Source: Elusimicrobiota bacterium
GTDB taxonomy: Bacteria > Elusimicrobiota > Elusimicrobia > Elusimicrobiales > UBA9959
Assembly: GCA_026388155.1 (NCBI GenBank)
Contig: JAPLKI010000025.1
Coordinates: forward strand, 220,931 to 284,930
Length of the DNA stretch: 64,000 nt
Reading direction: 5' to 3'
The notes below the pieces were generated by a model. The model was not told the origin of the DNA. It made no database searches and worked only from the letters and a program-made list of their open reading frames with translations. The translations under genes were made by a program, and so were the position numbers. This document shows, piece by piece, positions 4,332-48,270 of the stretch (position 1 is the first letter of the stretch; each line of letters begins with the position of its first letter).

Positions 4332-4369
4332 ACCCCGCACTTTGGCCCTTTTGGGAAAAAGTGCGGGGT
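4332..4369. repeat. Short (internally deleted) member of the MITE-like family A
   Basis: ACCCCGCACTTT...AAAGTGCGGGGT inverted ends, flanked by AA/AA. Confidence 0.7.
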
Positions 4370-8358: not shown

Positions 8359-8397
8359 GTCCCGCACTTTGGCCCTTTTTGGAACAAAGTGCGGAGC
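8359..8397. repeat. Short degenerate member of family A directly after ssnA
   Basis: CCCGCACTTTGGCCCTTTTTGGAACAAAGTGCGG, nearly identical to 4332-4369. Confidence 0.65.
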
Positions 8398-9510: not shown

Positions 9511-9594
9511 GCCCCGCTCTTTTGGCCCCAAGGCAAAGCTCTATGGCACTATGCTAAGCCTGTCGACTGAAGCTATGAGCCAAAAGAGCGGGGC
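9511..9594. mobile_element. MITE-like element family A (84 bp, intergenic)
   Basis: Perfect 16-bp inverted repeat GCCCCGCTCTTTTGGC/GCCAAAAGAGCGGGGC, flanked by GG/GG. Confidence 0.75.
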
Positions 9595-29783: not shown

Positions 29784-29868
29784 GCCCCGCTCTTTTGGTG
29801 CACAACTCCGGGTTCTATAACCAAAGTGTTGCCCTATAAGCCTTGTGTTGCGGCCAAAAGGGCGGGGC
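29784..29868. mobile_element. MITE-like element family A (85 bp) in the 5' region of ftcd
   Basis: GCCCCGCTCTTTTGG...CCAAAAGGGCGGGGC, flanked by CT/CT. Confidence 0.75.
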
Positions 29869-31368: not shown

Positions 31369-31374
31369 ATACAT

Positions 31375-31403: not shown

Positions 31404-31411
31404 GGGGTAAA

Positions 31412-31999: not shown

Positions 32000-32058
32000 C
32001 GAAAAAAGGACCGGGCTGCCGGCGGGCCGGAGACAGAATTAAGTTTGATTTCCAGCCG

Positions 32059-32589
32059 TTATTTTTTATCTGTTTTTTTGATATTCTTTACCAATTCAGG
32101 GTGGTCTTTCCTGAACTGATTCATTTCTTTCTTTTGAATGTCCTTCAGGAACTTCACGGCTTCTTTATATCCCTTTTTTTTCGTTTCCACGGCTTTGTGA
32201 ATTTCCTTACTGGAAGAGGCCTTCATCTGTTCCTTCAGCTGCCTGAGTTCTTCCTGCTGTTTTTTCTTCAGTTCGGCCATAGCCTGGCCCTGCTTCATTT
32301 TCATCTCCTCAATGCTGGCGGGCGCGGCAGGCTTTACAGCGACTTCGGGGACGGCGGCTTTTACATGAGCCGCCACAGTGCCCAACTCCGGAACGCCTGG
32401 ATCGGCCTGAAGCAGATTGGGTTGGAGTTCAGCGGGAGCGGAGACGTCTTTTTGCTCCTGCTTAGGCTCGGGGCGTGCGGGGGCGGCACCGGCCGGCGGC
32501 ACACCGGAAACAGGCAGGACCGGGGGATTCTGAGCGCAAACGCCGGCGCTTAAAAACCCAAGAACCATCAACAATACCGTCTTTTTCAT
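32059..32589 (-). CDS. Secreted hypothetical protein (Pro/Ala linker + Lys/Glu-rich coiled coil)
   Basis: MKKTVLL signal peptide with SD AGGAG. Confidence 0.65.
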   Translation of the reverse strand: MKKTVLLMVLGFLSAGVCAQNPPVLPVSGVPPAGAAPARPEPKQEQKDVSAPAELQPNLLQADPGVPELGTVAAHVKAAVPEVAVKPAAPASIEEMKMKQGQAMAELKKKQQEELRQLKEQMKASSSKEIHKAVETKKKGYKEAVKFLKDIQKKEMNQFRKDHPELVKNIKKTDKK

Positions 32590-32736
32590 TTTATTCTCCT
32601 TGAAAACAACCTGGCTGAACGTTAGAAAGGCTATTAGACTGAAGGAAGAATAGGCTGAAGGCAAAGCAGACTGAAAACTTCAACCTTCAATATAAACGCC
32701 TCTCTTTCTAACAGCCTTCAGTCTAAACAACCTGAT

Positions 32737-33813
32737 TTATTTAGGAACGACCCCCGTGCCTGCCCTGATTTTATCAAGGTTATAAACCCCGTCGCGCGAA
32801 ATAAATCCGGCCCCTCGCATGCCGCTGTCTTTTATAAAAAACGGCGTATCCAGATCTATAAAGTCAAACCCGCCAAGCCCGCCGGCGAACTGCGCGGCTA
32901 CTCCGGAGGCGAGTTCGGTTTCAAGCATTTCGCCCATCATCAGCTTTACGCCTTTTGCTCTGGCCAGCGTCCAGACCTCACGCGCCTTGAGGAAGCCGAA
33001 TTTGGTAAGTTTTATATTTACCGCCGTAACCGCTTTAGCGGCGAGCAGGCGAAAAACTTCATTAACGGAATAAGCGCTTTCGTCGGCGCACACGGGCATT
33101 TTAAGTTTCTTTGAAAGCCAGGAGAGGCCCTCAAGATCATTTTTAGCCACCGGCTGTTCAAAGACCGCCGGCACAATGCCTTTTTTCCCGAGAGCCGCAA
33201 TGAATTTCTGCGCCTCAGCCGCCGTATAGGCGCAGTTGGCGTCAAGGTAAATATCGCAGCCGGGCGCGGATTTATTCACCGCTTCAAGCCGCCGCATATC
33301 CTCATCAAAGTCAATCCCCACTTTTATCTTGAAAATTTTAAAGCCCGCGCGGCGCATTTTCAGCGTGAAGTCACGGGCCTCGGCCGCGCCGCCTATCACC
33401 ACGGTAATGTCGGTTTTAAGGCGGGCCTTGGCGCCGCCAAAAAAGCGCCAGAGGGAAATATCCAGCCTGCGGCAGGCCAGATCGAGCAGAGCTGTCTGCA
33501 CCGCCGCCAAAGCCGCGCGGCGGGAATCCAGTATTTCCTCAAGAGCGCAGAAAAGCTTTAAATAATCAGCCGAATCTTTGCCCTCAAGATACTTTGCGGC
33601 CATATTCAGGCCTTTACGCGTGCTCTCAAGGGTTTCGCCGGTAATATGGCTTGCCACCGCGGCTTCCCCCCAGCCGGTAAAGCCGTCTTTTGACTTGACG
33701 GAAAAAAGCGCGTTTTCAAGACTTTTATGGCTGCCGCTTGAAATGGTAAAGGGAGTAAACAGATCCGCCCGCAGGACGCGTTCGGCACAGCCGGTTATAA
33801 GCGAGGTTTTCAT
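32737..33813 (-). CDS. Dipeptide (L-Ala-D/L-Glu) epimerase, enolase superfamily
   Basis: FTISSG, KIKVG, DAN, EQP, ADES, NIKLTK, DLD. Confidence 0.88.
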   Translation of the reverse strand: MKTSLITGCAERVLRADLFTPFTISSGSHKSLENALFSVKSKDGFTGWGEAAVASHITGETLESTRKGLNMAAKYLEGKDSADYLKLFCALEEILDSRRAALAAVQTALLDLACRRLDISLWRFFGGAKARLKTDITVVIGGAAEARDFTLKMRRAGFKIFKIKVGIDFDEDMRRLEAVNKSAPGCDIYLDANCAYTAAEAQKFIAALGKKGIVPAVFEQPVAKNDLEGLSWLSKKLKMPVCADESAYSVNEVFRLLAAKAVTAVNIKLTKFGFLKAREVWTLARAKGVKLMMGEMLETELASGVAAQFAGGLGGFDFIDLDTPFFIKDSGMRGAGFISRDGVYNLDKIRAGTGVVPK

Positions 33814-33940
33814 ATCAGTTAAGGCTCCAGTTCTTCTTGTACTGCCGTTGAAATATATTTAAATATATAAGACGGGGCAAAAGCAAGGCGGCGGATTTCC
33901 GCAGTTTCTTTCGGCTTGAAATAACGCCTGTCAGTCTGCT

Positions 33941-34028
33941 AAACGAAAAACCCGCTCGTCGCGGGTTTTCGCTTCCCCCATAAGGCAGGGGGACTTGCCA
34001 TTTGGCGGACAGCCTTAGGCTGACGGCC
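33941..34028 (-). ncRNA. Candidate small RNA, copy B (unnamed)
   Basis: Same architecture and conserved blocks as 31284-31368. Confidence 0.65.
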
Positions 34029-34034
34029 AAAAGA

Positions 34035-34063
34035 AGTGTAGCACATGAATCTTGACTTGTCAA
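34035..34063 (-). promoter_or_regulatory. Sigma70 promoter TTGACA-17-TACACT
   Basis: -35 at 34063-34058, -10 at 34040-34035. Confidence 0.72.
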
Positions 34064-34077
34064 GGGGGCACGGACCG

Positions 34078-35337
34078 CTAATTTTTATACCACACCATGT
34101 AGTCATTGCCCTGCGCGGTCAATGTCCAGCCGGGGCCGGGATCCCAGCTCTGCCCGCCAAGCTTGACCGCCAGCTTATTGTCTATTACAGCAGCATAGAG
34201 ATTCTGCGAAGCCTGTATGATGCTTACGCTGCTTGAAGAATTTATTCCCAGGGATTTTCTTATTTTGGCAAGCCTTGTTATTTCGTCTTTCAGTCCCCAG
34301 TCAAAAAAATGAGACCAGAAGATGCACGGGACGCCGGGATGGGTCAAAATATAAGCGTAGCCCTGCATTACCTTGTCGGAAGGGAAGGGCCAGGACTTGG
34401 AAGAACTCGCATTGAGCGTGGTATCATGGTTGTCCACGAAAGTCACGGCGTTGTCCGGCCACCAGCCGATAAGGCCGGACGGGCGGCCGCTTGCGTCTTT
34501 CAGCCGCCAGTATTCGCCGGAAGCGACGGCCTGCTGAAGTATGCCCTTGGTCGTAAAATCAAATACTTTTATTTCGCCGTTGACCGAATCCATCCAGCTG
34601 GCTAAAGCCTGCCTGTGAGTATCGGTATTGTTAAGGTCAAGGTCGTCCCATATTTCGGCCACGGCAAAAACCGGTTTTGTGGCCCTGTTGTACATAAGCA
34701 TGTATTTGGAATCGTAGCCGCGGGCAAAATCGTAGCGCCAGCCGTCGTAGCCGACGGAAGTTCTCAGCCAGGTCATCCATGCGGTTATATCCTTCTGCAC
34801 GGCAGCGTTGGTATGATCCAGGTCACGCGCGAAAGGCACTCCCTTGCCGGTATCCGGCGCACCCCTGCCCTTCCCCCACTCGTCATCGGAGCAAACCGAT
34901 TCCGGACCCCACGCCGGGTCGGTGAAGTCGGCCCAGCCCTTGGTTCCCACACGGTGGTTGATAACGATGTCGGCTATAACCCGCACCCCTTTGGCGCGCA
35001 AAGCGGTTATGGCCGAGGCAAGTTCGACCGAAGAACCGTATTTGGAGTCCTGTATATAAAGCCTTCTGGGCAGATAGCCCTCGTCGCTGGCCGAGTCTGA
35101 GGAAGGCGGCAGCCAAACCAGGTTTATTCCCGCCCGGGACATATCGCCGGCCCTGCTCTCTACCGTGTTCCACCAGGGAGAGGTTTTCCATGAAGTCCAG
35201 TTAAAACCCTGAAGCATGATGGTGGAATCAAATCTTGGGACCGATGAGCCGGGGTTATGAACGGAAGCACAAAAAACTCTGCCGCCTGAAAGAGGCAGCA
35301 GTAATAGCACGGTGGCCAGCAGTTTTTTCACTTTCAT
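34078..35337 (-). CDS. Secreted alpha-amylase, GH13 (plant-type-like)
   Basis: Signal peptide; LQGFNW, DIVINHR, GWRYDFARG, AEIWD, FVDNHD, YILTHPG. Confidence 0.9.
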   Translation of the reverse strand: MKVKKLLATVLLLLPLSGGRVFCASVHNPGSSVPRFDSTIMLQGFNWTSWKTSPWWNTVESRAGDMSRAGINLVWLPPSSDSASDEGYLPRRLYIQDSKYGSSVELASAITALRAKGVRVIADIVINHRVGTKGWADFTDPAWGPESVCSDDEWGKGRGAPDTGKGVPFARDLDHTNAAVQKDITAWMTWLRTSVGYDGWRYDFARGYDSKYMLMYNRATKPVFAVAEIWDDLDLNNTDTHRQALASWMDSVNGEIKVFDFTTKGILQQAVASGEYWRLKDASGRPSGLIGWWPDNAVTFVDNHDTTLNASSSKSWPFPSDKVMQGYAYILTHPGVPCIFWSHFFDWGLKDEITRLAKIRKSLGINSSSSVSIIQASQNLYAAVIDNKLAVKLGGQSWDPGPGWTLTAQGNDYMVWYKN

Positions 35338-35394
35338 AACCCTATATACATTTCTATCACATATAAAGATTTTGTCAAGGGCCAATTGGGCAGG

Positions 35395-35533
35395 GGGTAG
35401 GGACTCGAGACTAGGGGTTAGCGGTTGGCGGTTAGGGAAGGAGTTTCTTACACTAACCGCTAGCGGCTAGCGGAGAGGGCGAGGAGTAAAGAACTCCTTC
35501 CCTAAACCCCTAACCTCCAGCCCCTATACCCTG
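35395..35533. repeat. Double family B palindrome (cores 35435-35444 and 35493-35502, inverted)
   Basis: GGGAAGGAGT and ACTCCTTCCC with heptamer arms. Confidence 0.72.
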
Positions 35534-35535
35534 CT

Positions 35536-36720
35536 TTATGCTAATTTTTTTCTCAGGTAATCAGCCCGCAAGGCGTCGCGTTCTGACGGGGAAAGCTGCC
35601 CGCCCCGCACTTTGGCCGATCCCATCGCGGAAAAAGTGCGGGATTTTCCGCTTGCAAGCTGCACATGGGCCGGCTGCATTAAAAGCGTCAGCTGGTTAAG
35701 CGTGTTGAAATCAAGGCCAAGCCCCGCACTTTTGGTTCCCAGACCATCGTCAATAGCCGCAGTCTCGCCGCTAACCGGCCGCTTTTTATCCCAAAAGGGC
35801 GGGGTAAACCTGCAGCCCATGGCAAGCCCCAGTCGCACCAAAGAAACATGCCGCATAAATTCCTGATAGGACATGAGCCTCGCATTCTTCAGCATACCAT
35901 AGGCGCGGTAAACAGCATCCTCCGTTTTCAACCTGTCCCCGCCCTTAAGAAGGGTTTCTCTGGCGGATATCTCCCTGCTTATGAGGTTTTTTATTGCGCG
36001 GTCCAGGCTTCTGCAGAACTCTTCCTCGCTCTTTCCCAGGCAGACGGCGTTTGAGATCTGGTAGAAATCACCCAGAATATAGGTGCCCTCGCCGTAAATG
36101 CCTCTTGCGGTAACGCCAAGACTGGAAAGGCTTTCAAGAGTTTCGGGTATGTATCCAAGGCGGGAAAGCGCGGGCAAATGGGCAAGACACGACACCCTGA
36201 GTCCTGTCCCCGCATTTGCGGGGCTGGCGGTAAGGCAGCCGAATTTATCGCTGCAGGCGTAAGGCAAAATCCTGCCGAGCGAACTTTCAAGTTTTTCCGC
36301 CGCGGCGAAAGCTTCTTCTATTGCAAGGCCGGCGACGATGCTTTGCACGCGCAGATGATCTTCTTCATTTACCATCACGGAAAGGCTTTCGTCGCCGCTG
36401 ATCACAACGCCCGCGGGCCGGATCATGGCGGACAGGGCATGCGAAATATGGTGGCGTTCCGCCAGAATTTGTTTTTCGAATGGAGAAAGCGTTTCGGTTT
36501 TAAGGTAACATGACCCCGGAAAAAAACCGCAGGCTTTTACAGCCTTGAACGCCAGGTCACGCGCGGAAAGCAGGGAGGAGGCGTGGGCGCGGTGCGGAAA
36601 CGGAAAACCGGAAAAGTTGCGCGCGAAGCGCACCCGGGTTGAAAATATCATTTCCGGGCAGCTGCCGCGCGAATTCGCCCAGTTAACGGCAGACCCGAAA
36701 GAGTCGGTTATTTCCGGCAT
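35536..36720 (-). CDS. mcsB: Protein arginine kinase McsB-like (ATP:guanido phosphotransferase) with two repeat-derived insertions
   Basis: STRVRFARN, ERHHIS, VMVNEEDHLRVQ, GTGLRVS, RGIYGEG, YQISN; adjacent to mcsA. Confidence 0.9.
   Translation of the reverse strand: MPEITDSFGSAVNWANSRGSCPEMIFSTRVRFARNFSGFPFPHRAHASSLLSARDLAFKAVKACGFFPGSCYLKTETLSPFEKQILAERHHISHALSAMIRPAGVVISGDESLSVMVNEEDHLRVQSIVAGLAIEEAFAAAEKLESSLGRILPYACSDKFGCLTASPANAGTGLRVSCLAHLPALSRLGYIPETLESLSSLGVTARGIYGEGTYILGDFYQISNAVCLGKSEEEFCRSLDRAIKNLISREISARETLLKGGDRLKTEDAVYRAYGMLKNARLMSYQEFMRHVSLVRLGLAMGCRFTPPFWDKKRPVSGETAAIDDGLGTKSAGLGLDFNTLNQLTLLMQPAHVQLASGKSRTFSAMGSAKVRGGQLSPSERDALRADYLRKKLA
35602..35644. repeat. Short family A element inside mcsB
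   Basis: GCCCCGCACTTTGG...AAAAGTGCGGG; read as SRTFSAMGSAKVRGG. Confidence 0.7.
35721..35805. mobile_element. 85-bp family A element inside mcsB
   Basis: GCCCCGCACTTTTGG...CCAAAAGGGCGGGGT, flanked by AA/AA; frame preserved. Confidence 0.78.
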
Positions 36721-36727
36721 TTATTCG

Positions 36728-37357
36728 CTATCCTAATTTCTTTATCTGGTCGCGCAGCCGGGCGGCTGTTTCAAAATCTTCCCTGTCAACGGCCGCTTTG
36801 AGCTCGGCGTTAAGCCCTTTAAGCCGGCGCGCGGTTTGTGCTTTGCGTTCCCGCTTCCCCGTTGCCGCACTGTCGCATTTTTCAAAGCTCTTTGCAGCCC
36901 GCGTCGCATAAACCTTTCCGGTATGCAGGCAGGAACCGTACGCGCGGGTAAGAAGCTCGCTTAACTGCGCGTCGAAGCTCACGTAGCACACGGAGCAGCC
37001 GAGTTTGCCCGTTTCCTTGAACTCTCTGTAGGTTAAAGCGCAGGCAGGACAATGCAGGGCCTTTTTCCCCGCCGGCAGGAATTCCTTGAAACAGCCGTTT
37101 ATGCCGCCTAATATATCCGGTATGTTCAAGGAACCGCTTTCATAGCCGGCGGGTACCGCCCCGCCCTTTTGGCCCGGAAAGCTGGGCTTATCACCCGACC
37201 TGTAATCTCCCACGCCGGTAGATTGTTCCAAAAGAGCGGGGCCCGCCCCTTTTTTGGCGGCGCATACGGCGCACAAATGGGCGTCGGTAACCTTGTTGTT
37301 TACCGCCATTTTAAGAAAAACAACGGCCTCGCGCCGGCCGCAATCCATGCAAAGCAT
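36728..37357 (-). CDS. mcsA: McsA-like protein (CxxC motifs + UvrB/C motif)
   Basis: MLCMDC, HLCAVCA, CPAC, GKLGCSVCY, EDFETAARLRDQIK. Confidence 0.9.
   Translation of the reverse strand: MLCMDCGRREAVVFLKMAVNNKVTDAHLCAVCAAKKGAGPALLEQSTGVGDYRSGDKPSFPGQKGGAVPAGYESGSLNIPDILGGINGCFKEFLPAGKKALHCPACALTYREFKETGKLGCSVCYVSFDAQLSELLTRAYGSCLHTGKVYATRAAKSFEKCDSAATGKRERKAQTARRLKGLNAELKAAVDREDFETAARLRDQIKKLG
37158..37242. mobile_element. 85-bp family A element inside mcsA
   Basis: GCCCCGCCCTTTTGG...CCAAAAGAGCGGGGC, flanked by CC/CC; read as GPALLEQ...GQKGGA. Confidence 0.78.
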
Positions 37358-38025
37358 TATGTTACGGCCTCAAGCCTGCCTCCTGAAAGATGGAAAACCC
37401 GGTCGGCGTAGGAAGCTGCGTCTTCGTTATGGGTCACCATAAGCACAGAAGCCCCGATAGAGTTGGCTTTTTTTAGATCGTCCAGAACTATTTTCGCGTT
37501 ATGCCTGTCCAGATTGCCGGTGGGCTCGTCGGCTATCAGCAGGCCGGGATTGTTTACGAGGGCCCTTAAAATAGCCGCGCGCTGTTTTTCTCCGCCTGAG
37601 ATCTCCATAGGAAATTTGTGCGCCAGCGCCTCAAGCCCGAAGCGCCGCAAAAGTCCGACTGCACGCGAGGTATCCCCGCGCCCGGCAATCCTTAGGGGCA
37701 TGTCAATGTTTTCAAGCACCGTGAATTCCGGCAGGAGCGAGTCGAACTGAAACACGAAACCTATGTTTTTCAGCCGAAGAACCGCTTTTTCGCTTTCGCT
37801 CAAAAGCTCGAGCTTGCGGCCATAAAGGCGTATTTCCCCGCTATATGAATCGTCAAGCAAGCCTATCAGATTGAGAAATGTGGATTTGCCGGAACCGGAA
37901 GGACCAAGGAGCACGATAAATTCCCCCTTACGGGCAAAGAAATTTATCTCTTCAAGTACCTGTACCTGCTCGTGCCCCTGCACATAAGCCTTGCTCAGAC
38001 CGGTTATTTCTACGATTTTATCCAT
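37357..38025 (-). CDS. lolD: Lipoprotein-release ABC transporter ATP-binding protein
   Basis: GPSGSGKS, IGFVFQF, ISGGEKQR, ADEPTGNLD; follows lolC/E. Confidence 0.85.
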   Translation of the reverse strand: MDKIVEITGLSKAYVQGHEQVQVLEEINFFARKGEFIVLLGPSGSGKSTFLNLIGLLDDSYSGEIRLYGRKLELLSESEKAVLRLKNIGFVFQFDSLLPEFTVLENIDMPLRIAGRGDTSRAVGLLRRFGLEALAHKFPMEISGGEKQRAAILRALVNNPGLLIADEPTGNLDRHNAKIVLDDLKKANSIGASVLMVTHNEDAASYADRVFHLSGGRLEAVT

Positions 38026-38039
38026 AGTTAAACGGCAGA

Positions 38040-38105
38040 GAATAGTGGCGAGAGATTAGCGGTACTCCTTCCCCAACCTCCAGCCGCTAGCCTCTATCCT
38101 CTGCC
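38040..38105. repeat. Family B palindrome (core 38064-38073)
   Basis: ACTCCTTCCC with heptamer arms. Confidence 0.65.
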
Positions 38106-39329
38106 CTACCCATACCGTATGGCATCCACGGGGCTGATCTTTGAGGCCCGAAGCGCCGGATAAACGGCGCTGAGCATACAGAGCGCGTAGCTGATAAAAA
38201 CCGTGCCGAGCACATCGCGCAGTTTTATTTCCACCGGCACCCGGCTGATATAGTAAATGTCTGAAGGCAGTTCAACTACCGGATAGCGTCCGATGAACAG
38301 CGAGAGCGCGAGTCCCAAAAGCACGCCGAGGCTTATACCGCTTATGGCTATAAGGTTGCCCTCCCAGAAAAAAACGCGCCGTATGAACCCGGGGCCGGCC
38401 CCTATCGAGCGCAGTATGCCTATATCGCGCAGTTTTTCCACGCTCATCATCAGCAGATTTGAGGCAATATTAAAAGTGGCCACCAGAATTATAAGCGCGA
38501 GCACCAGAGACATCATAAATTTCTCAAGTTTCAGGGCCGCAAAAAGCGTCTGGTTCATGTCGGCGTAGGTTTTCACCGTATACTGAAAACCGAGGCTTTT
38601 TTTAAGCGCGGCGGCCACCCGCCCCGAAAGTTCTATATCGTCCAGCTTCAGGCCCATGCCGTTCGCGCCGCCGTCAAGATTAAAAAAGTCTCCCGCATCT
38701 TTAATCCCGCAATAGGCCATGGTATTGTCAAACTCATAGTAACCGGTGTGAAGAAGACCCGCCACTTTGAACTTGCGCATTTTCGGGAAAATGCCTATGG
38801 AGGTGGCTACGGATTTCGGCGACACAAGAATAACCTCGTCTCCCAGCCACACGCCTATGTTCTTTGCCAGTTCTTCGCCGAGTATGATGGCGGGAACCAT
38901 GGAGCCGGTTTCTTTCAACGCGTTCCAGGAGCCGGTTTTAAGCGAAGCCTTAAGGTTGTTTATTTTAAACTCGCCCTCGGGGTCAAGCCCTTTCACCACC
39001 ACGCCGGTGGAGCGGTTATCAAAGGTAAGTATCCCCTGCCCAAGCACGAAAGGGGAAAAGGCGGTCACATGGCCCTGTTCGGAAAGCGCCGAGGTCAGGC
39101 GCGCGCGGTCCTGGGTCCGCATGGGACCGTAAATTATGATATGCGCCTGGGCGTCAACTATTTTTTTCTTGATGTCGGACTGGAAACCGTTCATTACGGA
39201 GAGGGTGGTAATAAGAGCCGCTACCCCCACGGTAACTCCGGCCACGCCTATAAGCGTGGTTACCATGGAAAACAGGCCTTTTCTCTTGGCTTTCAGATAC
39301 CGGTAGGCGATAAAGAATTCTGCGGACAT
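38106..39329 (-). CDS. lolE: Lipoprotein-release ABC transporter permease LolC/E
   Basis: FIAYRYL, LSVMNGF, LFAALKLEK, DIGILRSIG, PVDAIRYG. Confidence 0.88.
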   Translation of the reverse strand: MSAEFFIAYRYLKAKRKGLFSMVTTLIGVAGVTVGVAALITTLSVMNGFQSDIKKKIVDAQAHIIIYGPMRTQDRARLTSALSEQGHVTAFSPFVLGQGILTFDNRSTGVVVKGLDPEGEFKINNLKASLKTGSWNALKETGSMVPAIILGEELAKNIGVWLGDEVILVSPKSVATSIGIFPKMRKFKVAGLLHTGYYEFDNTMAYCGIKDAGDFFNLDGGANGMGLKLDDIELSGRVAAALKKSLGFQYTVKTYADMNQTLFAALKLEKFMMSLVLALIILVATFNIASNLLMMSVEKLRDIGILRSIGAGPGFIRRVFFWEGNLIAISGISLGVLLGLALSLFIGRYPVVELPSDIYYISRVPVEIKLRDVLGTVFISYALCMLSAVYPALRASKISPVDAIRYG

Positions 39330-39387
39330 AATTATACGGCAGCGGCTAGAGGAGAGCGTATAGCGTAGAGAGCAGTTTCCCCCCTTC

Positions 39388-40896
39388 TTACAGGTCCGGG
39401 GCCTTGTACTTTGCGGCTTCGGGTTTCAGCAGCGGGAACAAAATCACTTCCCTTATGGAAGGCTTGCCGGCAAAAAGCATGGTAAGGCGGTCAATGCCTA
39501 TGCCGATGCCGCCCATCGGAGGCATACCGTACTCCATGGCCTCAATAAAATCCTTATCAAGAATGTCCGCCTCGCCGTTATTTTCCTCTTCGCGCTGGCG
39601 GAGCTGCTCCTCAAGGCGGCTTTTCTGATCCTCGGGGTCGTTCAACTCGGAGTAGGCGTTCGCTATTTCCTCTTTCCCGGCAAAAAACTCAAAGCGTTCC
39701 ACTATGGATTCATCTCCGGTCTTACATTTGGCCAGCGGAGTTATGGCCGTGGGATAATCCATAACGAAAGTGGGCTGATCCAGTTCCGACAGTATCTTCT
39801 CGTCCATGATCCGTTCAAAGATCTTGGCGGGCGGGGTGTCGGCCGCGGATTCTATGTGAAGTTTGGCCGCCAGTTTTTTCAGGTTTTCCTTGTTAAAGGA
39901 CTTGCCCTTCAGCACTTCGTGTATGTTCTCTCCTGTTTTTTTCAGCCATTCGCCGGGCAGGGACAGACGTTTGAACGGAGGCTTCAGGTTTACCGTCATC
40001 CCGTTGTAGTCAACAGTGTCCGCGCCTATGATAAGCGAGCATTTTTTAAAGATCGTTTCCACCAGTTCGGCCATGCCGTTGTAGTCGGAATAGGCCTTAT
40101 AGGCTTCCAGCGTGGTAAATTCCGGATTATGGCGGGTGTCCACGCCCTCATTGCGGAACACGCGGCCTATTTCGTATGCGCCGTCAAAACCGCCGATGAT
40201 AAGTTTCTTAAGCGGCAGTTCCGTGGCGATGCGCATGTAAAGTTCATATTTATACGCGTTGTGAAAGGTTATAAAGGGCCGCGCCGACGCGCCGCCGGCC
40301 TGGGCGCAAAGCACCGGAGTTTCAACCTCAAGGTAGCCGTCCGCGTCAAGCACGCCGCGGATGGCGGATACCACCTGCGCGCGCCGCACAAAAATAGTAC
40401 GCGCTTCCTCGTTGGAAATAAGGTCAAGGTAACGCTCGCGGTAGCGGGCTTCCGGATCCGTCAGGCCGTGAAATTTCTCAGGCAGCGGGCGCACGGATTT
40501 TGAAAGCACCGTAAGTTTTTCCGCGTTCACGGTCAATTCCCCCGTATGGGTCAGAAAAAGTTTTCCCTCCACCCCCAGAAAATCCCCCACGTGCATCTGC
40601 TTCTTAAAAAGTTCATAAGCCGCTTCACCCACGGCGTCCTTTTTAACGTAAATCTGCATCTTGCCGGTGCCATCCTTAAGGTGGGCGAAAGTGGCCTTGC
40701 CCATCACGCGCATAAGCACTATGCGTCCCGCTATTATAACGCTTGTATCGGCCGGGGCCTGGCGGGCCCTGTCAATTTTATGCGTCAGCCGGAACCTGTG
40801 GGGGAACGGATCTATACCCTGCTCCCGTATGGTTTTTATTTTGGCGTAATTATTGGCGATTATGTCGTTTATCCCGGAGTTTGGGGTGATGTTCAT
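39388..40896 (-). CDS. lysS: Lysine--tRNA ligase (class II)
   Basis: PLPEKFHGL, YRERYLDL, FRNEG, HNPEFT, YGMPPMGGIGIGIDRL. Confidence 0.97.
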   Translation of the reverse strand: MNITPNSGINDIIANNYAKIKTIREQGIDPFPHRFRLTHKIDRARQAPADTSVIIAGRIVLMRVMGKATFAHLKDGTGKMQIYVKKDAVGEAAYELFKKQMHVGDFLGVEGKLFLTHTGELTVNAEKLTVLSKSVRPLPEKFHGLTDPEARYRERYLDLISNEEARTIFVRRAQVVSAIRGVLDADGYLEVETPVLCAQAGGASARPFITFHNAYKYELYMRIATELPLKKLIIGGFDGAYEIGRVFRNEGVDTRHNPEFTTLEAYKAYSDYNGMAELVETIFKKCSLIIGADTVDYNGMTVNLKPPFKRLSLPGEWLKKTGENIHEVLKGKSFNKENLKKLAAKLHIESAADTPPAKIFERIMDEKILSELDQPTFVMDYPTAITPLAKCKTGDESIVERFEFFAGKEEIANAYSELNDPEDQKSRLEEQLRQREEENNGEADILDKDFIEAMEYGMPPMGGIGIGIDRLTMLFAGKPSIREVILFPLLKPEAAKYKAPDL

Positions 40897-40914
40897 TTTC
40901 TAGCCTATGGCTGT

Positions 40915-40945
40915 GCCGTATCAAGGGCTATGCCCATCAGACGGC
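40915..40945. repeat. 31-bp REP-like hairpin, family C copy 3, overlapping the response regulator stop codon
   Basis: GCCGTATCAAGGGCTATGCCCATCAGACGGC. Confidence 0.75.
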
Positions 40946-41325
40946 TTTGATGCGATGGCGTCCTTTACGATTTTTACCAGGTTTTTGGGTTCGAACGGCT
41001 TTTCCACGAAAGCGAAAATATTGGAGGACAGCTCAAAGAGGTCTTTCATCTGCCCCTTGGCGGTCAATATAATTATGGGTATGTGGCTAAGCTCGTTAAT
41101 TTCCTGGAGTTTTCCCTGCAGGGTATAGCCGTCCATTTCAGGCATCATGATGTCAAGTATCAGGACGTCGGGAATAATTTTCTTGGCGGCGTCAAGGGAG
41201 GTAAGCAGGTTAAAGGCCTCAAGGCCGTTATACGCCTCATGCACTTCCAGCTGCTCCCGCTCCATAAGCACCTTGATCAGATACACCACATCTTTCTCGT
41301 CATCCACTACCATTACTTTAGCCAT
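40921..41325 (-). CDS. Single-domain response regulator
   Basis: VVDDE, LDIMMPEMDG, LTA, KPF. Confidence 0.9.
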   Translation of the reverse strand: MAKVMVVDDEKDVVYLIKVLMEREQLEVHEAYNGLEAFNLLTSLDAAKKIIPDVLILDIMMPEMDGYTLQGKLQEINELSHIPIIILTAKGQMKDLFELSSNIFAFVEKPFEPKNLVKIVKDAIASKPSDGHSP

Positions 41326-41570
41326 AAATCCCCTGTAAACCGCGAAAAACCGTCGAAAGACAAAACCGCGGATTTTCCGGCGCCTGGCGGCACTTTGCCT
41401 GCCAGAGGCGGGGCCGGACCGAATTCATTATTATAGTATATAATTTCTCGCAGTTAAAAATCCCGCTCCGGAGCGGGACCGGAGAGAAGAAAAACCGGCG
41501 CAAAAAATGTAAAATGGATATGCAGCCTGAAACTGCGGCTGGAAACATAATCATTTCCTGGAGATTCAAA

Positions 41571-42026
41571 ATGGCACTTGAAAAAACCCTTATCCTTATC
41601 AAACCTGACGGCATTAAACGGCGGCTGACCGGCCTGGCCATTGACCGGCTTGAAAACGCGGGCTTTGAGCTTGTGGGCGCGAAAGCGGTAAGCGTCACTG
41701 AAGATTTGGCCAGAAAACATTATGACGCCCTCAAAGACAAACCGTTCTTTGAAAACCTTATAAAATATATACGCGGAGAGTTTCACGGTATTTCAAAAAA
41801 CCGCATTATCGCTTTGGTTTACAGAGGCGAGAACGCAATAAAAGGGGTGCGCGCCGTGGTGGGGGCCACAAATCCCGAGGAGGCCGCACCCGGTTCCATA
41901 AGGGGCTCGTTTGGAAGGATAAGTTCAAAAGGACAGTTTGAAAATGTAGTCCATGCCTCAGGCGATGCTGAAGACGCCAGGCGTGAAGTGGCCCTCTGGT
42001 TTAAGCCTGACGAAATAATTGAGTAA
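41571..42026 (+). CDS. ndk: Nucleoside-diphosphate kinase
   Basis: EKTLILIKPDG, GATNP, PGSIRG, NVVHAS. Confidence 0.95.
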   Translation: MALEKTLILIKPDGIKRRLTGLAIDRLENAGFELVGAKAVSVTEDLARKHYDALKDKPFFENLIKYIRGEFHGISKNRIIALVYRGENAIKGVRAVVGATNPEEAAPGSIRGSFGRISSKGQFENVVHASGDAEDARREVALWFKPDEIIE

Positions 42027-42107
42027 AGAAGGCCATAGGCCATACGCCGTAAGCCATAAGTTTAAAGGTGTTCCTTAAAAAGCTTATGGCAGTAATTCTC
42101 TTTCGAT

Positions 42108-42989
42108 ATGAAACTTAAACTTTTATTCCCGTTTGTTTTTTTCTTCAGCGCCCCACTTTTCGCACAGCAAGCCGGCCGGGAACGCGTCGAGGAGCGCGTA
42201 ACGCTTGAAACGGACGACGGCTGGAAACTGAATGCCCGCTACCTGAGAGCCGCGCAGAGCGCGCCCACCCTTGTACTGCTGCACACTCAAAAAAGCGACC
42301 TGACGGAATGGAACCTTTGGTTCCCCTACCTTAAAAAATACGGCTACGGCTACCTGGCGCCTGACCTGCGCGGGCATGGTTTCAGCTTTATTATGCCCAA
42401 CGGCTCCACAGCCACCTACAGATCCTTCGCTATAAGCGGCCCCGACAACGAATTCAATAAAATGACCAGGGATGTGGAAGCGGCCGTGGCGTATCTGTCA
42501 ACGAACTCCGTAACCTCCGACAGGATAGTTCTGGCGGGTTCCGTGCTGGGCGCGAACCTGGCCATAAAAACAGCCGCCATACATCAGGATATCGCCATGG
42601 TTATAGCCATTTCTCCTGCGCTCAATATAAACGACGTGCTGTCAATAAACCCGCTCAGGGCCTACGGTAAAAGGCCGATCCTGCTTGTGGCCGGCGCCGA
42701 CCGGGCCAGGCAATACAAGGAATTCCAGCTTATAAATGATATAGCGAAATCGGCCTGCGGAAAAGAAAATGTAAGCGTGCTGGTTGAAGCAAAAGGCATA
42801 GGGCCGGAATTGATCACAAAATACAACATTAAAAGGGTTCTGGACTGGCTTAAAAATCCGCGCCTGCCGGAGATAATTCAGCTGTCAACCGGCGCCGTGC
42901 AGGACGCCGCGCCCAAGGCCTTATCGGACGATGGAAACGACCGGACCGAAGAAGAGCAGGCCGCCTACAAGGATGGCAATGGAGAATAA
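42108..42989 (+). CDS. Exported alpha/beta-hydrolase fold protein, probably non-catalytic
   Basis: Signal peptide, VLLH, DLRGHG; nucleophile elbow reads GSVLG. Confidence 0.75.
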   Translation: MKLKLLFPFVFFFSAPLFAQQAGRERVEERVTLETDDGWKLNARYLRAAQSAPTLVLLHTQKSDLTEWNLWFPYLKKYGYGYLAPDLRGHGFSFIMPNGSTATYRSFAISGPDNEFNKMTRDVEAAVAYLSTNSVTSDRIVLAGSVLGANLAIKTAAIHQDIAMVIAISPALNINDVLSINPLRAYGKRPILLVAGADRARQYKEFQLINDIAKSACGKENVSVLVEAKGIGPELITKYNIKRVLDWLKNPRLPEIIQLSTGAVQDAAPKALSDDGNDRTEEEQAAYKDGNGE

Positions 42990-43878
42990 ATTCTTAAAAT
43001 ATTCAAAGCTCCCCACCGAACAGGTAAACCCGCGCACGGCCGACCTTGACCGGCTGCCGCTCCGGCGGGTGCTTGAGAAGCTGAACCGCGAAGACTCCCT
43101 TATTCCGAAGGCGGTCAAAAAAGCCATACCGCAGATAGAGAAAGCGGCGCGGGCCGTATCGCGGGCGTATCTCTCCGGCAACAAAATATTCTTTATCGGC
43201 GCCGGAACCAGCGGCCGGCTGGGAGTGCTTGAAGCGGCGGAACTCCCCCCCACTTACGGCGTAGACTCGGCAATCTTTACGGCGCTTATGGCCGGGGGCG
43301 ACAAGGCCGTGTTCCACTCAAAGGAAGGAGCCGAAGATGTTTTTGACGACGGACGGCGCGAAATTTACAAACTCGCCCGCAAAGGAGATGTTGTTATAGG
43401 CATAGCCGCAAGCGGCATAACGCCGTATGTGCGCGGAGGGCTTGTCGCAGGCAAAAAGAAGGGCGCGGTAACAGCGCTTATTACCTGCAACCCCGGTGAA
43501 AAATCCAGGGAAACCGACGTGGTAGTGGCGCTTGACGTGGGGCCTGAACCGATTTCCGGTTCCACCCGCATGAAGTCGGGCACGGCCACCAAGCTTGCGC
43601 TGAACATGATTTCCACTTCTGCCATGGTAATTTCAGGCAAGGTTTACCGCAACTGGATGGTGGATGTAAAAACCACTTCGCACAAGCTCGTATTGCGCGC
43701 GGAGCGCATTGCCGCCACCCTGGGAGAAGTGCAGCAGGAAGAAGCGCGGCGCCTGCTTACTATCACCGGCAACGAAGTTAAGACGGCCATCGTAATGGCT
43801 CGCCGCGGGATAAGCCTGGAAAAAGCCCGCACCCTCATAAAAAAGCATAAAGGCTTCCTAAAAGCCATCCTTGGCTAA
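42979..43878 (+). CDS. murQ: N-acetylmuramic acid 6-phosphate etherase
   Basis: GAGTSGRLGVL, EGAED, GPEPISGSTRMKSGTATK. Confidence 0.95.
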   Translation: MENKFLKYSKLPTEQVNPRTADLDRLPLRRVLEKLNREDSLIPKAVKKAIPQIEKAARAVSRAYLSGNKIFFIGAGTSGRLGVLEAAELPPTYGVDSAIFTALMAGGDKAVFHSKEGAEDVFDDGRREIYKLARKGDVVIGIAASGITPYVRGGLVAGKKKGAVTALITCNPGEKSRETDVVVALDVGPEPISGSTRMKSGTATKLALNMISTSAMVISGKVYRNWMVDVKTTSHKLVLRAERIAATLGEVQQEEARRLLTITGNEVKTAIVMARRGISLEKARTLIKKHKGFLKAILG

Positions 43879-44035
43879 GGCAGATGCATAGCAGTTTAGA
43901 TGCATAGCAGCTTAGAAGTTGAAATTCTTTGAAATTTCAGCCCGCTTTACATCCGTGCATCTCTACGTCCGCTCCTTCTTGCAAAATGAAACCTTTTCGC
44001 CGGATTATCCGTATGTTTTCATGGATGCCAAAAAT

Positions 44036-45298
44036 ATGAGATACCACAAGATTACAAGACTGCTTCGCGCTATGGCAGTTATGTTATTTTTTTCCCCGCT
44101 CGGAATTTATGCCCAGGAAGCCGCTCCGCTCTCTTTTGACGAAGCCGCCAGACTCCTGCTTCAGAACAACCCGCAGGCCATAACTGCCGAACGCGCCATA
44201 GACTCGGCCCGCAACCGTTCCTTATATTACCGTGCCGGCCTTTATCCGCAACTCTCCGCCAATGCCGGTTATAACCGCGTCGAAGGAGACTTAAGCCCGG
44301 CAAGCGAATCCTATTCATACGGTTTTTCCGCCACCCAGCCCATTTTCTCCCCCGCCCTGCCAGCCGCGATCCGCTCCGCCCTGGCCTCTTACCGCAAGAC
44401 CGAGGCGGACTACGACCTGCTTAAGTCCGCTTTGCTTTTTGATCTCAAGACGACTTTTTCCGACCTCATCAAGGCGCGTGAAACCCTTAAACTTTCCGAA
44501 GTGACCCTTAAACGCCGGGCCGAAAATGTGGAGATAATCCGTATCAAATACGAAGCAGGCCGCGAGAACAAAGCCGCGCTTCTTGAAACCCAGTCCGTAT
44601 ACAAGACCTCCCAGTGGCAGCACGAGGGCTATAAAAAGGATCTGCGCCTCCTGGAACGGAAACTGAACCGCCTGCTTGGCCGCCCGCCCATGGCGGACAC
44701 GCAGGTGACAGCCCTCCCCTCCTCACCGGTCCCGCCGGAAGAGTTTAATTCTTTTTCCGGCAGCCTGGAGAAACATCCATCGCTCCGCTCCGCCCGCGCC
44801 TTGCTGGAAGTAAGCCAGGCCGGCGTTGACCGCTCCAAAAGCGGATTTCTGCCCGAAGCCGACGCAGTGGGCAATTATACCTGGGCCGGCTCCGACTGGC
44901 CCGACAAGAACAAAAGCTGGTCGGCGGGCTTTACCCTTTCACTTCCATTATTCACCGGCGGCAAGCTTTCGGCGGACCTGACTTCCGCGCAAGCCGATAA
45001 AGCCCGCGCCGAGGCCTCTCTTAAAGACGCCCGGGACGAAGTTTATATAAACGCGGAGGACACCTTTCTATCCTGGCGCCAGGCCTGGTCCTTTATGGAC
45101 GTGGCTAATACCGTCCTGGAATCGGCCAATGCCCGCGCCTGGCTTCTGCGCAAGCAGTATCTGGCCGGCCAGGCTTCATATTTCGAATGGCGCAATGTTG
45201 AAGAGCAGCTTATCAGCGCCGAGAATCAGCTTTTGTCGGCCAAGCGGGATCTCGCCGTAGCCCACGCAGCCTTCACCAGATCTTTAGGAGAATTCTAA
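44036..45298 (+). CDS. TolC family outer-membrane efflux protein
   Basis: Signal peptide, LYPQLS, YEAG, LSLPLFTGG, YLAG repeats; start uncertain. Confidence 0.85.
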   Translation: MRYHKITRLLRAMAVMLFFSPLGIYAQEAAPLSFDEAARLLLQNNPQAITAERAIDSARNRSLYYRAGLYPQLSANAGYNRVEGDLSPASESYSYGFSATQPIFSPALPAAIRSALASYRKTEADYDLLKSALLFDLKTTFSDLIKARETLKLSEVTLKRRAENVEIIRIKYEAGRENKAALLETQSVYKTSQWQHEGYKKDLRLLERKLNRLLGRPPMADTQVTALPSSPVPPEEFNSFSGSLEKHPSLRSARALLEVSQAGVDRSKSGFLPEADAVGNYTWAGSDWPDKNKSWSAGFTLSLPLFTGGKLSADLTSAQADKARAEASLKDARDEVYINAEDTFLSWRQAWSFMDVANTVLESANARAWLLRKQYLAGQASYFEWRNVEEQLISAENQLLSAKRDLAVAHAAFTRSLGEF

Positions 45299-46260
45299 TG
45301 AAAAAGAGCTTTTTCAAAACCAAGAAATTTATATTCGGCGGCATCATCCTGGTACTGATCGGCGGAGGCTGGACCGCCTGCGAACATAGCCGGGCCAAGA
45401 AGGAGCTTAAGAAGCTGGAAGATCTCTCTCCCGTGAAAGTCGCCAAAGGGCTGTTCGTAATAAAGACCCAGGCTATAGGCGTAGTTGAGCCGGAAAACCG
45501 CGTGCTGGTAACGCCTTCGGTAAGCGGCCGGGCGGAGGAAGTACTGTTCCGCGAAGGCGACCTGGCGAAAAAAGGCCAGATACTTGCCTGGGTAAGTTCA
45601 AGCGAGCGCACCGCGCTTTTAGACTCCCTTAAAATGAACGGTTCCACTCCCGAGGAGAAGAAAATGGTGGAAGAAGCCTACAATCTTACGCCCGTGGTCT
45701 CCCCCATAGACGGCATGGTGATAAAACGCGCCGTTGAGCCGGGCCAATCCGTCAGCGAAGCAAAGGAAATAGCCGTTCTCTCGGACCGCCTCATCATCAA
45801 GACCTATGTGGACGAGACCGACATCGGCAGCGTGAAAGAAGGCCAGAAAGCCGAGTTCTACCTTGATTCTTTCCCCAAGGACAAGTACGAGGGAAATGTG
45901 CTTTCCATCGCCAGAGAGTCCATCCTGAAGGAAGGTGTGACTGTTTACGAAGTGAAGATCCTGGCCTCTAAAAATATCCCGGTACTGCGCTCCGGCATGA
46001 CGGCCGACGTGCGCGTAATAACAGACGTGAAACCGAAAGCTCTTTACCTGCCCAAGAAAGCCATTACTTACAAGGATGGGGACGCTTTTGTGACTATTAA
46101 AGACGCAAAAGCAAAAAAGGTAACCGACAAAAAAGTGGAGCTCGGCGCCTCCAATGAGAAAACCATAGAGATACTTTCGGGTGTCAGCGAGAACGACACT
46201 GTCTACTACTCCACCTCGATCGCCAAAGAGCGCTCCAACATAGTAATAAACGCCAATTAA
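45298..46260 (+). CDS. macA: MacA-like periplasmic adaptor subunit
   Basis: SVSGR, SPIDGMV, VDETDIG, LRSGMTA; between tolC and macB. Confidence 0.8.
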   Translation: MKKSFFKTKKFIFGGIILVLIGGGWTACEHSRAKKELKKLEDLSPVKVAKGLFVIKTQAIGVVEPENRVLVTPSVSGRAEEVLFREGDLAKKGQILAWVSSSERTALLDSLKMNGSTPEEKKMVEEAYNLTPVVSPIDGMVIKRAVEPGQSVSEAKEIAVLSDRLIIKTYVDETDIGSVKEGQKAEFYLDSFPKDKYEGNVLSIARESILKEGVTVYEVKILASKNIPVLRSGMTADVRVITDVKPKALYLPKKAITYKDGDAFVTIKDAKAKKVTDKKVELGASNEKTIEILSGVSENDTVYYSTSIAKERSNIVINAN

Positions 46261-48270
46261 ATGGAAACGCTGATAGACATACGCAAGGTCTCCAAGACCT
46301 ATCTCACCGGCTCATTTACAGTGGAGGCGCTTAAAGAAGTCTCCCTCAAAATAAAAGCCGGCGAGCTGGTATCTCTGACAGGCCCTTCCGGGTCCGGCAA
46401 ATCCACTTTAATGCACATCCTGGGTTTTCTGGACCGGCTGGACTCAGGGGAATACTATTTCGCGGGCCATCCGACGTCCAGCCTTGATGAAGGCCAGTTG
46501 GCCGCCATCCGCAGCCGCATGGTCGGCTTCATATTCCAGTCTTTCCACCTTCTAAAGAGGACCACGGCCAGAGATAACGTCATGCTGCCCATGGTCTACA
46601 GCGGCCTCGGAACGGATGCGCGTAAAGCCCTGGAGTGCCTGCGGCTTGTAGGCCTCTCCGATAGGGCAAAGCATAAATCGAACGAACTCTCCGGCGGACA
46701 GTGTCAGCGTGTGGCGGTAGCCCGCGCACTTGTGAACAACCCGCTTATTCTGCTGGCCGACGAACCCACCGGCAACCTGGATGCCAAAAGCCGCCAGGAA
46801 GTGATGCAGGTAATAAAAGACCTCAATGACCGCGGCCTTACCGTGGTCATAGTCACGCATGATGAAGAGGTTTCGGCGCAGACCCGCCGCGTGGTGCGTA
46901 TGAAGGACGGCGAGATAGTTTCCGATGAAACCCGCCCCGCTCTTTTAGGCCGGGAAGCGCGGCTTGAAACCCAGCCTGAATCTTTTGCGCCCGGGCAATT
47001 GAGCCAAAAGGGCGGGGCCGCGCGGCTGCCCAAAGCGCGTATGGGCTTCACCCCTTCCGAAATCGGCGAACAGTTAAAGGTAGCTTTCAAGGCCATCTGG
47101 AGCCACAAAACACGCAGCGCTCTGACCATACTGGGCATCTTTATAGGCGTGGGCTCCATCATCTCGCTTATGACCATAAGCGAAGGTTTCATGAAAAGCC
47201 TGCTCAGCGGCGCCAGCGAAGACGACGCCAAAAAGGTCTACGTCACGCCTCGCCAGGAACACCTCAAAGCAAGCCGCCGCCTTACATACAGCGACGTGGA
47301 GGCCATAAGGTCCGGGGTGCCGCTGGCGGAAAAGATCACGCCCATAGTGCAGGGCAGCGCCCAGGCCTCTGTAGGGAATAAACACGTTGACGCCAGCATA
47401 CAGAGCAGCGAGGGTTTTACCCTGGAAGCTCAAAAGTCAAAAAAGAAATTTTTTGAGAACCGCAGCCTGGAAGGCCGCTTCTTCACTCCGGCTGAAAATT
47501 TGAACCGCGCGCGTGTGGCGGTTATCAATCAGACTTTGGCCAAAAAAATGTTCGGCTCGGGATCGGCGGTCAACAACGAGATACGCCTAAAGGATATAAC
47601 GTTCACGGTAGTGGGGGTCGCGGAGGACCAGAAAGCGGAACAGATCTTCGGAGGCCGGCCTACGGCCTATATCCCTATCAACACCGCCTCCAAGCGCGTG
47701 TTCGGTTCTACCCGCCTGGACTATATAGAAGTGGTCGCGCCCACCCCCGCCGACTCTGTTGAGGCGCGCAAGCAGATAATCCTGGTCCTGCGTAAAGCGC
47801 ACGCTCTGCGCGAAGACAAGGACGATGACTTTGAAGTTAAAACTTTTGAGGCGCAGATAAAGATGTTCAAAGACGGCATGGGGAAACTCTCGCTGGTGGT
47901 CTACGCGATAGCGGGCATTTCCCTTCTTGTAGGCGGCATAGGGATTATGAACATCATGCTTGTCAGCGTCACTGAACGCACCCGCGAGATAGGATTGCGC
48001 AAAGCCCTGGGGGCCAAGAACTCCGACATTTTAGGCCAGTTCCTAATTGAGGCGGTCACGCTTTGCCTTATAGGCGGGGCATTGGGCATAGCCCTGGGGT
48101 TTGCATTGGGCTGGGCGGCTTACTTTTTTATTAAGGTACCTCCGACGCTGGGGATAGGCACCATTTCTTTCGCTTTCGGTTTTTCCACTATTATCGGTGT
48201 AAGCTTCGGTTTCTGGCCGGCGCTGCGCGCGGCAATGCTTGACCCCATAGAAGCGCTCCGTTACGAGTAA
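46261..48270 (+). CDS. macB: MacB-like fused ABC ATPase-permease
   Basis: GPSGSGKS, LSGGQ, DEPTGNLD; GGIGIMNIMLVSVTERTREIGLRKALGA; PIEALRYE. Confidence 0.9.
   Translation: METLIDIRKVSKTYLTGSFTVEALKEVSLKIKAGELVSLTGPSGSGKSTLMHILGFLDRLDSGEYYFAGHPTSSLDEGQLAAIRSRMVGFIFQSFHLLKRTTARDNVMLPMVYSGLGTDARKALECLRLVGLSDRAKHKSNELSGGQCQRVAVARALVNNPLILLADEPTGNLDAKSRQEVMQVIKDLNDRGLTVVIVTHDEEVSAQTRRVVRMKDGEIVSDETRPALLGREARLETQPESFAPGQLSQKGGAARLPKARMGFTPSEIGEQLKVAFKAIWSHKTRSALTILGIFIGVGSIISLMTISEGFMKSLLSGASEDDAKKVYVTPRQEHLKASRRLTYSDVEAIRSGVPLAEKITPIVQGSAQASVGNKHVDASIQSSEGFTLEAQKSKKKFFENRSLEGRFFTPAENLNRARVAVINQTLAKKMFGSGSAVNNEIRLKDITFTVVGVAEDQKAEQIFGGRPTAYIPINTASKRVFGSTRLDYIEVVAPTPADSVEARKQIILVLRKAHALREDKDDDFEVKTFEAQIKMFKDGMGKLSLVVYAIAGISLLVGGIGIMNIMLVSVTERTREIGLRKALGAKNSDILGQFLIEAVTLCLIGGALGIALGFALGWAAYFFIKVPPTLGIGTISFAFGFSTIIGVSFGFWPALRAAMLDPIEALRYE
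46934..47018. mobile_element. 85-bp family A element in the macB ATPase-permease linker
   Basis: GCCCCGCTCTTTTAG...CCAAAAGGGCGGGGC; interior aligns with 37158-37242; read as PALLGRE...SQKGGA. Confidence 0.75.

Follow-up and report, generated by a model that had tools for sequence, protein, structure and literature searches.

How does a repeat of about 85 bp come to lie inside open genes without breaking their reading frames, and what moves it? The question is raised by a 64,000-nucleotide stretch of an Elusimicrobiota bacterium genome (GenBank assembly GCA_026388155.1, contig JAPLKI010000025.1, positions 220,931 to 284,930, forward strand; hereafter the window), in which copies of a repeat with 15-bp terminal inverted repeats (TIRs) lie in mcsB, mcsA and macB. 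The copies belong to a lineage-restricted, apparently undescribed family of short repeats whose inverted ends are conserved and whose interiors vary, a description in which we place high confidence. The mobiliser is unproven, and no insertion sequence (IS) with these ends was found. The best explanation, a tentative preference that falls a little short of an even chance, is trans-mobilisation by a Y1 transposase of the TIR-flanked (TIRYT) type combined with a reading-frame filter; the identity of the enzyme is its weak step.

Copies in the window and the proteins that carry them

The initial annotation had described five long copies by position, length and flanking dinucleotides (GG/GG, CT/CT, AA/AA, CC/CC and CC/CG), all of which we reproduced. 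The TIR pattern is well above chance, with 14 window matches at up to two mismatches against a mean of 1.25 and a maximum of 5 in shuffled sequence. Three related copies, at 35602-35644, 4332-4369 and 8359-8397, come in addition to those five. Copies and host genes are as follows.

35721..35805: 85-bp copy, AA repeat on both sides, in frame in mcsB, 29 residues, phase 0
35602..35644: 43-bp related copy with the GCCCCGCACTTTGGCC end type, in frame in mcsB
37158..37242: 85-bp copy with a CC repeat, encoding 29 residues in frame within mcsA; a TIR-like sequence adjoins the target
46934..47018: 85-bp copy with CC/CG flanks, in the macB linker between the ATPase and permease parts
29784..29868: 85-bp copy, CT repeat, intergenic in our gene model, directly 5' of a probable formiminotransferase-cyclodeaminase start
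9511..9594: 84-bp copy, GG repeat, intergenic, with one response-regulator paralog on each side
4332..4369: intergenic short copy of 38 bp with an AA repeat
8359..8397: intergenic short copy of 39 bp without a flanking repeat
35536..36720, minus strand: mcsB, protein-arginine kinase, open, two inserts 3' of the catalytic domain
36728..37357, minus strand: mcsA, McsB activator, open, one insert
46261..48270, plus strand: macB-type ABC ATPase/permease fusion, open, one insert

The three gene names were borne out by profile matches, McsB by NF002194, NF053707 and PF00217, McsA by NF053706 (the NCBIfam scores for both being under the curated cut-offs) and MacB by PF12704, PF00005 and PF02687. Contigs from public sequencing runs match the copies at 29784-37242 (X3, X4, X6) and 46934 with 0 differences. 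The copies are therefore not an assembly slip, although these runs may themselves be the source of this DNA.

We compared the inserts with orthologs, referring to the genome of the window (3.36 Mb) as G000 and to its congeners as G001 and G002; C-numbers denote contigs of G000 and L-numbers fetched loci. The clean 29-residue indels that had been predicted were found in two of the three proteins. Exactly these residues are missing from McsB in 8/8 orthologs. For McsA the gap is 29 residues in G001, and in the remaining 7 orthologs it is about 30. The predicted empty sites are also seen in DNA: mcsA and mcsB of G001 are shorter by 87 nt, and the dinucleotide position is single. For MacB the in-frame copy stands but the clean indel does not, as the linker in G000 is 17 residues longer than in G001 and G016. 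The same copy occupies the same site in G002 and is absent from G001, G015 and G016, the linker being variable. The 43-bp mcsB copy corresponds to a 15-residue insert relative to the outgroups, with a degenerate 13-residue version in G001. Comparison with a solved McsB chain makes both the 29- and the 15-residue insert visible, C-terminal to the catalytic domain. The inserts may be tolerated loops in working proteins, as the initial annotation proposed.

The 84-bp copy lies between tandem paralogous response-regulator genes (8467-9501 and 9737-10756). A third, partial response-regulator paralog at C17:181726 likewise comes after a short copy. A scan of the window with Rfam gave no match.

Target site, length and reading frame across the family

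In G000 a loose scan gave about 155 paired copies, a few of them false positives, with modal lengths of 37, 43 and 85 bp and minor classes of 52, 94, 101-103 and 135-143 bp. G002, covered by 120 tiles for 2.24 of about 2.6 Mb (about 14% lying outside), holds 67 copies with modes at 37, 52 and 85 bp, and has a young 52-bp subfamily of 18 copies. A 31-bp class with 7-bp ends gave 8 pattern matches in each of the two genomes. The short pattern was found in 7 of 61 relatives, all within one family. Among 301 genomes of the phylum the long pattern occurs in 5; four of them belong to the same family, and the fifth has a single AT-rich match and lies outside it. With one mismatch allowed, all four long copies in G015 are 85 bp, G011 and G017 have one 85-bp copy each, and G001 has six matches of 82-97 bp. 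The 85-bp length is thus seen in four genera with unrelated interiors. The same repeats occur in Elusimicrobia bacterium GWA2_51_34, among the best 80 of 121 loci listed.

The claim that ends and length are fixed held for the ends; length is modal, with intergenic long copies running from 81 to 89 bp and 10/33 at 85 bp. The claimed divergence of interiors was confirmed. By interior, the 56 long copies of G000 sort into some eight to ten subfamilies that share ends, each copy having a relative above the shuffle maximum, and pairwise interior identity among 30 85-mers has a median of 29%. Predicted folds show reliable pairing between the two ends only. Capture of interiors from elsewhere in the genome was rejected, since the outside matches of the 85-bp class (among those listed) are few, short and mostly degenerate copies. 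[quoted passage not shown] The openly accessible literature, subscription papers lying outside the search, gave no description of this family, in line with the earlier impression.

The target duplication is real. De-duplication reduced 204 copies to 155 after uncertain ends were dropped and to 141 after shared flanks were dropped. An identical 2-bp repeat flanks 80 of these 141 copies (shuffle null mean 14.2, maximum 27), so that the match of flanking dinucleotides noted for the window stays above chance in the larger sample. Where both flanking dinucleotides share purine or pyrimidine class, 70/87 are identical (null 30, maximum 46), and a 3-bp repeat is present at 14/141 copies. Across species, 37 G000 sites were mapped in G002 and 26 G002 sites in G000. 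Six are exact empty sites of length plus 2 (C22:52556, C8:123041, C7:164133, C17:79641, L352:14162 and L306:11923); the remaining mapped sites are shared, imprecise or occupied by other repeats. Three sites hold different members in the two genomes. At one of them C24:451009 (85 bp) corresponds to L303:5172 (52 bp), and the CT repeat is common to both; at the other two C17:304117 (85 bp) corresponds to a 31-bp member and L316:17774 (52 bp) to a 37-bp member. Hot-spot reuse or replacement may account for these, and both fit.

Read outward, the flanking bases are G (84%), C (65%) and C (53%), giving a target consensus of GGC-NN-GCC; the target therefore resembles the element's own end junction. 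The NN counts are AA 42, AG 30, GG 22, CA 6, TA 3, AC 2 and AT 2, and NN is never GA, GC or CG (expected 8, 13 and 17). The purine strand of NN tracks the asymmetry of the two ends in the long-end type (37:12, p=5e-4), with no such link in the 37-bp type (13:10). A tie of the NN strand to gene direction (12:10) or to local GC skew (31:23) was rejected, as was carriage of the dinucleotide by the element, because near-identical copies differ in NN. A terminal A accompanies a flanking A in 10/18 cases versus 11/142. When the asymmetric targets were sorted, 5 agreed with a direct repeat of 4 bp (CTAA, TTAG, CGGA, TATG), 2 with a mirror rule, 5 with the default of neither change and 2 with something else; 83+4 is therefore as possible as 85+2. 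Insertion 2 bp from a TIR-like sequence was found at 12/282 junctions.

Reading frame was assessed with gene calls from our own codon model (2695 genes in G000, 84% coding). Inside genes lie 44 of the 155 copies (28%), and 39 of these 44 have a length of 3n+1, versus 42 of 107 intergenic copies (remainders 42/33/32; Fisher p=1e-8). The intergenic share alone is not above one third (p=0.12), and among the five coding copies of other lengths two stand in tandem within a single gene. In G002, 28/67 copies (42%) are coding and 25/28 of these are 3n+1, as are 20/35 intergenic copies. Counted the other way in G000, 39/84 frame-keeping copies are coding versus 5/71 others; frame-shifting subfamilies (38, 83 and 84 bp) amplify too, yet between genes. 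The enrichment of 3n+1 among coding copies therefore indicates that selection filters them. Of the frame-preserving geometry suggested in the initial annotation, the in-frame inserts remain, while length as a built-in design gives way mostly to selection on coding copies. The filter alone leaves two things unexplained: every modal length is 3n+1, and 85 bp is kept with unrelated interiors in four genera. From these we infer a further selection on length that acts on the element itself. Unused frames are open no more often than expected (56/110 open, null 52.8, p=0.28), and selection for their openness was rejected.

The tiles of G002 hold a spanning ortholog for 20/44 coding copies, of which 3 are exact, 3 shared at equal length and 14 other; in this last group the copy is shared but with additional indels, or replaced, or the alignment is poor. 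Host genes for which orthologs were scanned (11) include glyS, dapF, pth, etfB, rnhB, prmC and those of an MtaB-type enzyme and the CCA-adding enzyme. The open genes with an in-frame copy thus number in the dozens, housekeeping genes among them, and are lengthened mostly by 13 to 29 residues. Five shared coding copies differ at 37/291 bases, and the third codon positions of 117 genes at 35%, which may hint that the copies are constrained or else young. Ends differ less than interiors in these five copies (12/146 vs 25/145, p=0.02), both being below third codon positions. [quoted passage not shown] Different interiors at one site across species speak for the same account, as does the frequent inclusion of copies in larger composite repeats. 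We nevertheless judge it improbable: clean empty sites with a single dinucleotide require de novo insertion, most flanks are unrelated (141/155 strict copies remain after de-duplication), and intergenic copies show little preference for any gene orientation.

Other short palindromic families are present in G000 (CAGTCGCGGACAGCGCC..., AGGGGAAACCGC... and GTCCGCCTAAGGCGGA, e.g. C8:68526-68612 and C4:47285-47361), often as 42-bp units nested in one another and in the elements studied here. At L293:17808 of G002, an 85-class copy contains an in-frame 42-nt insert from another palindromic family. A 230-bp composite repeat of four or five palindromes (C2:48600-48831, C11:131958-132187 and C24:372340-372572) includes a 101-103-bp unit with related ends and is present in L296 of G002 as well. 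The sequence GGCCGTCTGA occurs 80 times in G000, often adjoining elements, and is probably the end of another repeat; we take it to recall a Neisseria uptake sequence.

Candidate mobilisers

The classical alternative is a MITE of a DDE-transposase IS that makes duplications of 2-3 bp (or of 4-5 bp, YNNR, with the terminal base as target), its autonomous IS lost or unassembled and the frame kept by the same selection filter. The 15-bp TIRs, a truly target-derived duplication with its 3-bp class, the junctions 2 bp from TIR-like sequence and the five asymmetric targets that fit a 4-bp direct repeat all point in this direction. The searches do not. The initial annotation had pointed to the IS30 family; that lead failed, as NF033563 has no match in G000, G001 or G002 (0/3 genus genomes), and the IS30 of G015 has ends unrelated to the element. 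Profiles covering IS30, IS4/IS5, ISL2, IS427, IS630, IS1182, IS1380 and IS110 were used; PF01609, NF033563, PF02371, PF13359, PF13358, PF13340, PF13701 and PF13751 had no match in G000 or G002, which are drafts. PF00665 matched a Mu-like protein in G000 and two open reading frames (ORFs) in G002 without these ends. No long TIR pair in G000 encloses a transposase, no exact TIR lies within 200 bp of a G000 contig end, and no autonomous IS with the same ends was found in the draft genomes searched or in transposase loci fetched from relatives. No multi-copy IS appeared among the top groups of the G000 paralog and DNA-repeat screens. Beyond these genomes, a bare 15-mer scan of genome contigs was dominated by chance matches (best 80 of 121 loci), viral sequence scans gave 14 loci, none with full ends plus a 2-bp repeat, and metagenomes, scanned for an end-to-end junction, yielded 8 loci: a tandem of family copies and seven terminator-like sequences, without a transposase in any. 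The young 52-bp subfamily of G002 implies recent activity, which also tells against a lost IS, as do the many copies under 46 bp. A DDE-type MITE remains in our view a real possibility, though a somewhat doubtful one.

A serine recombinase with a 2-bp crossover core could in principle move the element. A 2-bp repeat between palindromic half-sites would fit, and resolvase-domain genes are present, six in G000 and one in G002. Such a core should be inherited, yet sister copies differ in NN; no serine recombinase was found in G001, a carrier, and none of the genes lies near a TIR. The variation of NN among near-identical copies largely refutes this route, which we regard as very improbable. Among the tyrosine and serine recombinase genes screened, none is TIR-flanked.

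Several mobile genes were seen in passing. Three paralogous large serine recombinases lie at contig ends of G000 (C17:116, C25:391 and C21:121339). Locus L178 (C6:156253-159009) encodes a Mu-like transposase of 710 codons followed by an ATPase gene and is likely a transposable prophage or a remnant of one. At C8:105224-107151 an AT-rich 357-codon ORF, its C-terminus presumably nuclease-like by its motif, and an ORF6N-like remnant lie between inverted repeats of 25 bp that are akin to the element ends; a recognisable transposase is not among them.

The preferred candidate is a Y1/HUH transposase. Each of the six carrier genomes that were checked (G000, G001, G002, G011, G015 and G017) has Y1_Tnp genes, the sole transposase family found in all of them, with 4 genes in G000 (near 73.6 kb of C13, 96.6 kb of C18, 190.3 kb of C8 and 284.6 kb of C24) and 6 in G002. 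Most are TIR-flanked, e.g. by AAAAAAGGGGACAGGC and AAAAGGTGCCAGGCAC, and several have a GGGGWSAS motif. Their TIR layout, AAAAG...C-AG-G, resembles the element end plus its repeat. Assignment to subclass 2.1 is by resemblance, from a weak Bac_DnaA_C match and an NF047646 score below cut-off. Copies of only 31-46 bp leave very little room for a double-stranded paired-end complex, which we count in favour of the Y1 route. We count likewise the conserved ends around a spacer that varies but keeps a preferred length, a pattern known from REPINs (bioRxiv 2021.07.10.451892, PMC3116915). In the mechanism that we propose, a resident Y1/HUH transposase of TIRYT type would act in trans on a short repeat without coding capacity, which would insert at numerous sites and leave a short duplication of the target. 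The junction of end, NN and flank would be recognised as a small palindrome, and excision or exchange would regenerate the site. Copies in genes would be retained only if length and duplication together are divisible by three, 3n+1 lineages would be more successful because coding sequence makes up about 84% of the genome, and the host proteins would tolerate the inserts. The junction 4-mers CTTG, CCTG and TTTA belong to the type II DNA loops described in the accessible text of PMC9975016, and such loops would suit a single-strand step.

Several results weigh against trans-mobilisation by a Y1 enzyme. None of 38 Y1 loci is flanked by the TIR of the element. Y1 genes occur in 34/41 family genomes, with or without the repeat, and co-occurrence therefore says little. 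Target duplication is a mark of DDE enzymes and is not known as one of IS200-type HUH enzymes. The element ends are not GTAG-tagged hairpins, the dinucleotide is not borne by the element, 47/141 copies are without a 2- or 3-bp repeat, and flanks are deleted at many orthologous sites. No excision joint was seen in contigs of four public runs, which cannot show absence. CTCG junctions are absent though they fit the YYYR loop rule, as given in the accessible text of PMC9975016, and the hairpin-loop idea is therefore weakened.

A bolder form of this reading, which we consider unlikely, is that a TIR-flanked HUH class moves 31-103-bp elements with target duplication and swaps family members at fixed sites in essential genes. 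Lengths of 31, 37, 43, 52, 85 and 94 bp, all 3n+1, would then be selected at the level of the element and make coding DNA habitable, forming a heritable, exchangeable system of peptide cassettes.

As an observation on the Y1 genes themselves, some in G000 (e.g. C13:73555-74231, L153, and one on C18, L157) are flanked by 21-23-bp palindromes, AAAAGGTAGACGCTACCTTTT / AAAAGGTACCAGGTACCTTTT, which are also dispersed in 11 and 8 copies, a TIRtron with its own repeat family.

Relation to known repeat families

In-frame selfish repeats are known elsewhere. The present family supplies what those do not: comparison of congeners gives dozens of dated sites that are empty, filled or replaced, the target is defined, and a single genome encodes four candidate enzymes. 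It also lets selection be told from design in frame-neutral insertion. Its natural insertions of 13, 15, 18 and 29 residues in GlyS, DapF, EtfB, RNase HII, an MtaB-type enzyme and McsA/McsB map tolerant positions.

The likeness to Rickettsia palindromic elements (RPEs) raised in the initial annotation holds for in-frame insertion in many genes. According to the accessible parts of PMC10969869 and PMC3733652, RPE-1 and others, and the intragenic REPs of Opitutus terrae, keep the frame of numerous host genes that are unrelated and often have housekeeping roles, with inserts of 20-30 or more residues and a mobiliser that is not known, similar to the element. RPEs are about 150 bp in these accounts and encode a conserved peptide, whereas the element is read in all three phases and both orientations, and its peptides differ by frame and subfamily. 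It further differs from RPEs so described in its unrelated interior subfamilies, in pairing between the ends only, in several size classes that share ends and in a demonstrable target duplication.

The type II MITEs of prokaryotes (Correia, RUP, ERIC, Nezha), in the portions of PMC10969869 and PMC3184786 that are accessible, share with the element TIRs, flanking direct repeats, the lack of a transposase and empty or filled orthologous sites. In relation to them the element is smaller (31-103 bp), has GC-rich ends, is intragenic in 28% (44/155) to 42% (28/67) of copies and has no cognate IS among those found. The TIRtron/TIRYT group, TnpA-Y1 subclass 2.1, has TIR-flanked Y1 genes with a GGGGWSAS-like motif, also present in these genomes, and dispersed TIR families organised as dimers are known for it; the accessible sections of these accounts (PMC3733652, PMC6006769) are without coding insertions or target duplications. 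The element ends match none of the TIRYT TIRs found in these genomes.

REPIN-RAYT systems, to the extent covered by the accessible text of PMC3116915 and bioRxiv 2021.07.10.451892, resemble the element in two conserved inverted ends around a highly variable spacer of preferred length, in vertical persistence in a lineage and in RAYT-like genes in the genome. Unlike REPINs, which those sources describe as almost wholly extragenic, the element lacks self-complementary, palindromic REPs with a GTAG/GGAG tag at its ends, and no RAYT gene is flanked by them. Collectively, the family fits strictly into none of the REPIN, IS30-MITE and RPE classes. The theme of palindromes in coding sequence is already known from Rickettsia and a few other bacteria, and the family adds a variant on it that combines a MITE-like footprint with REPIN-like evolution.

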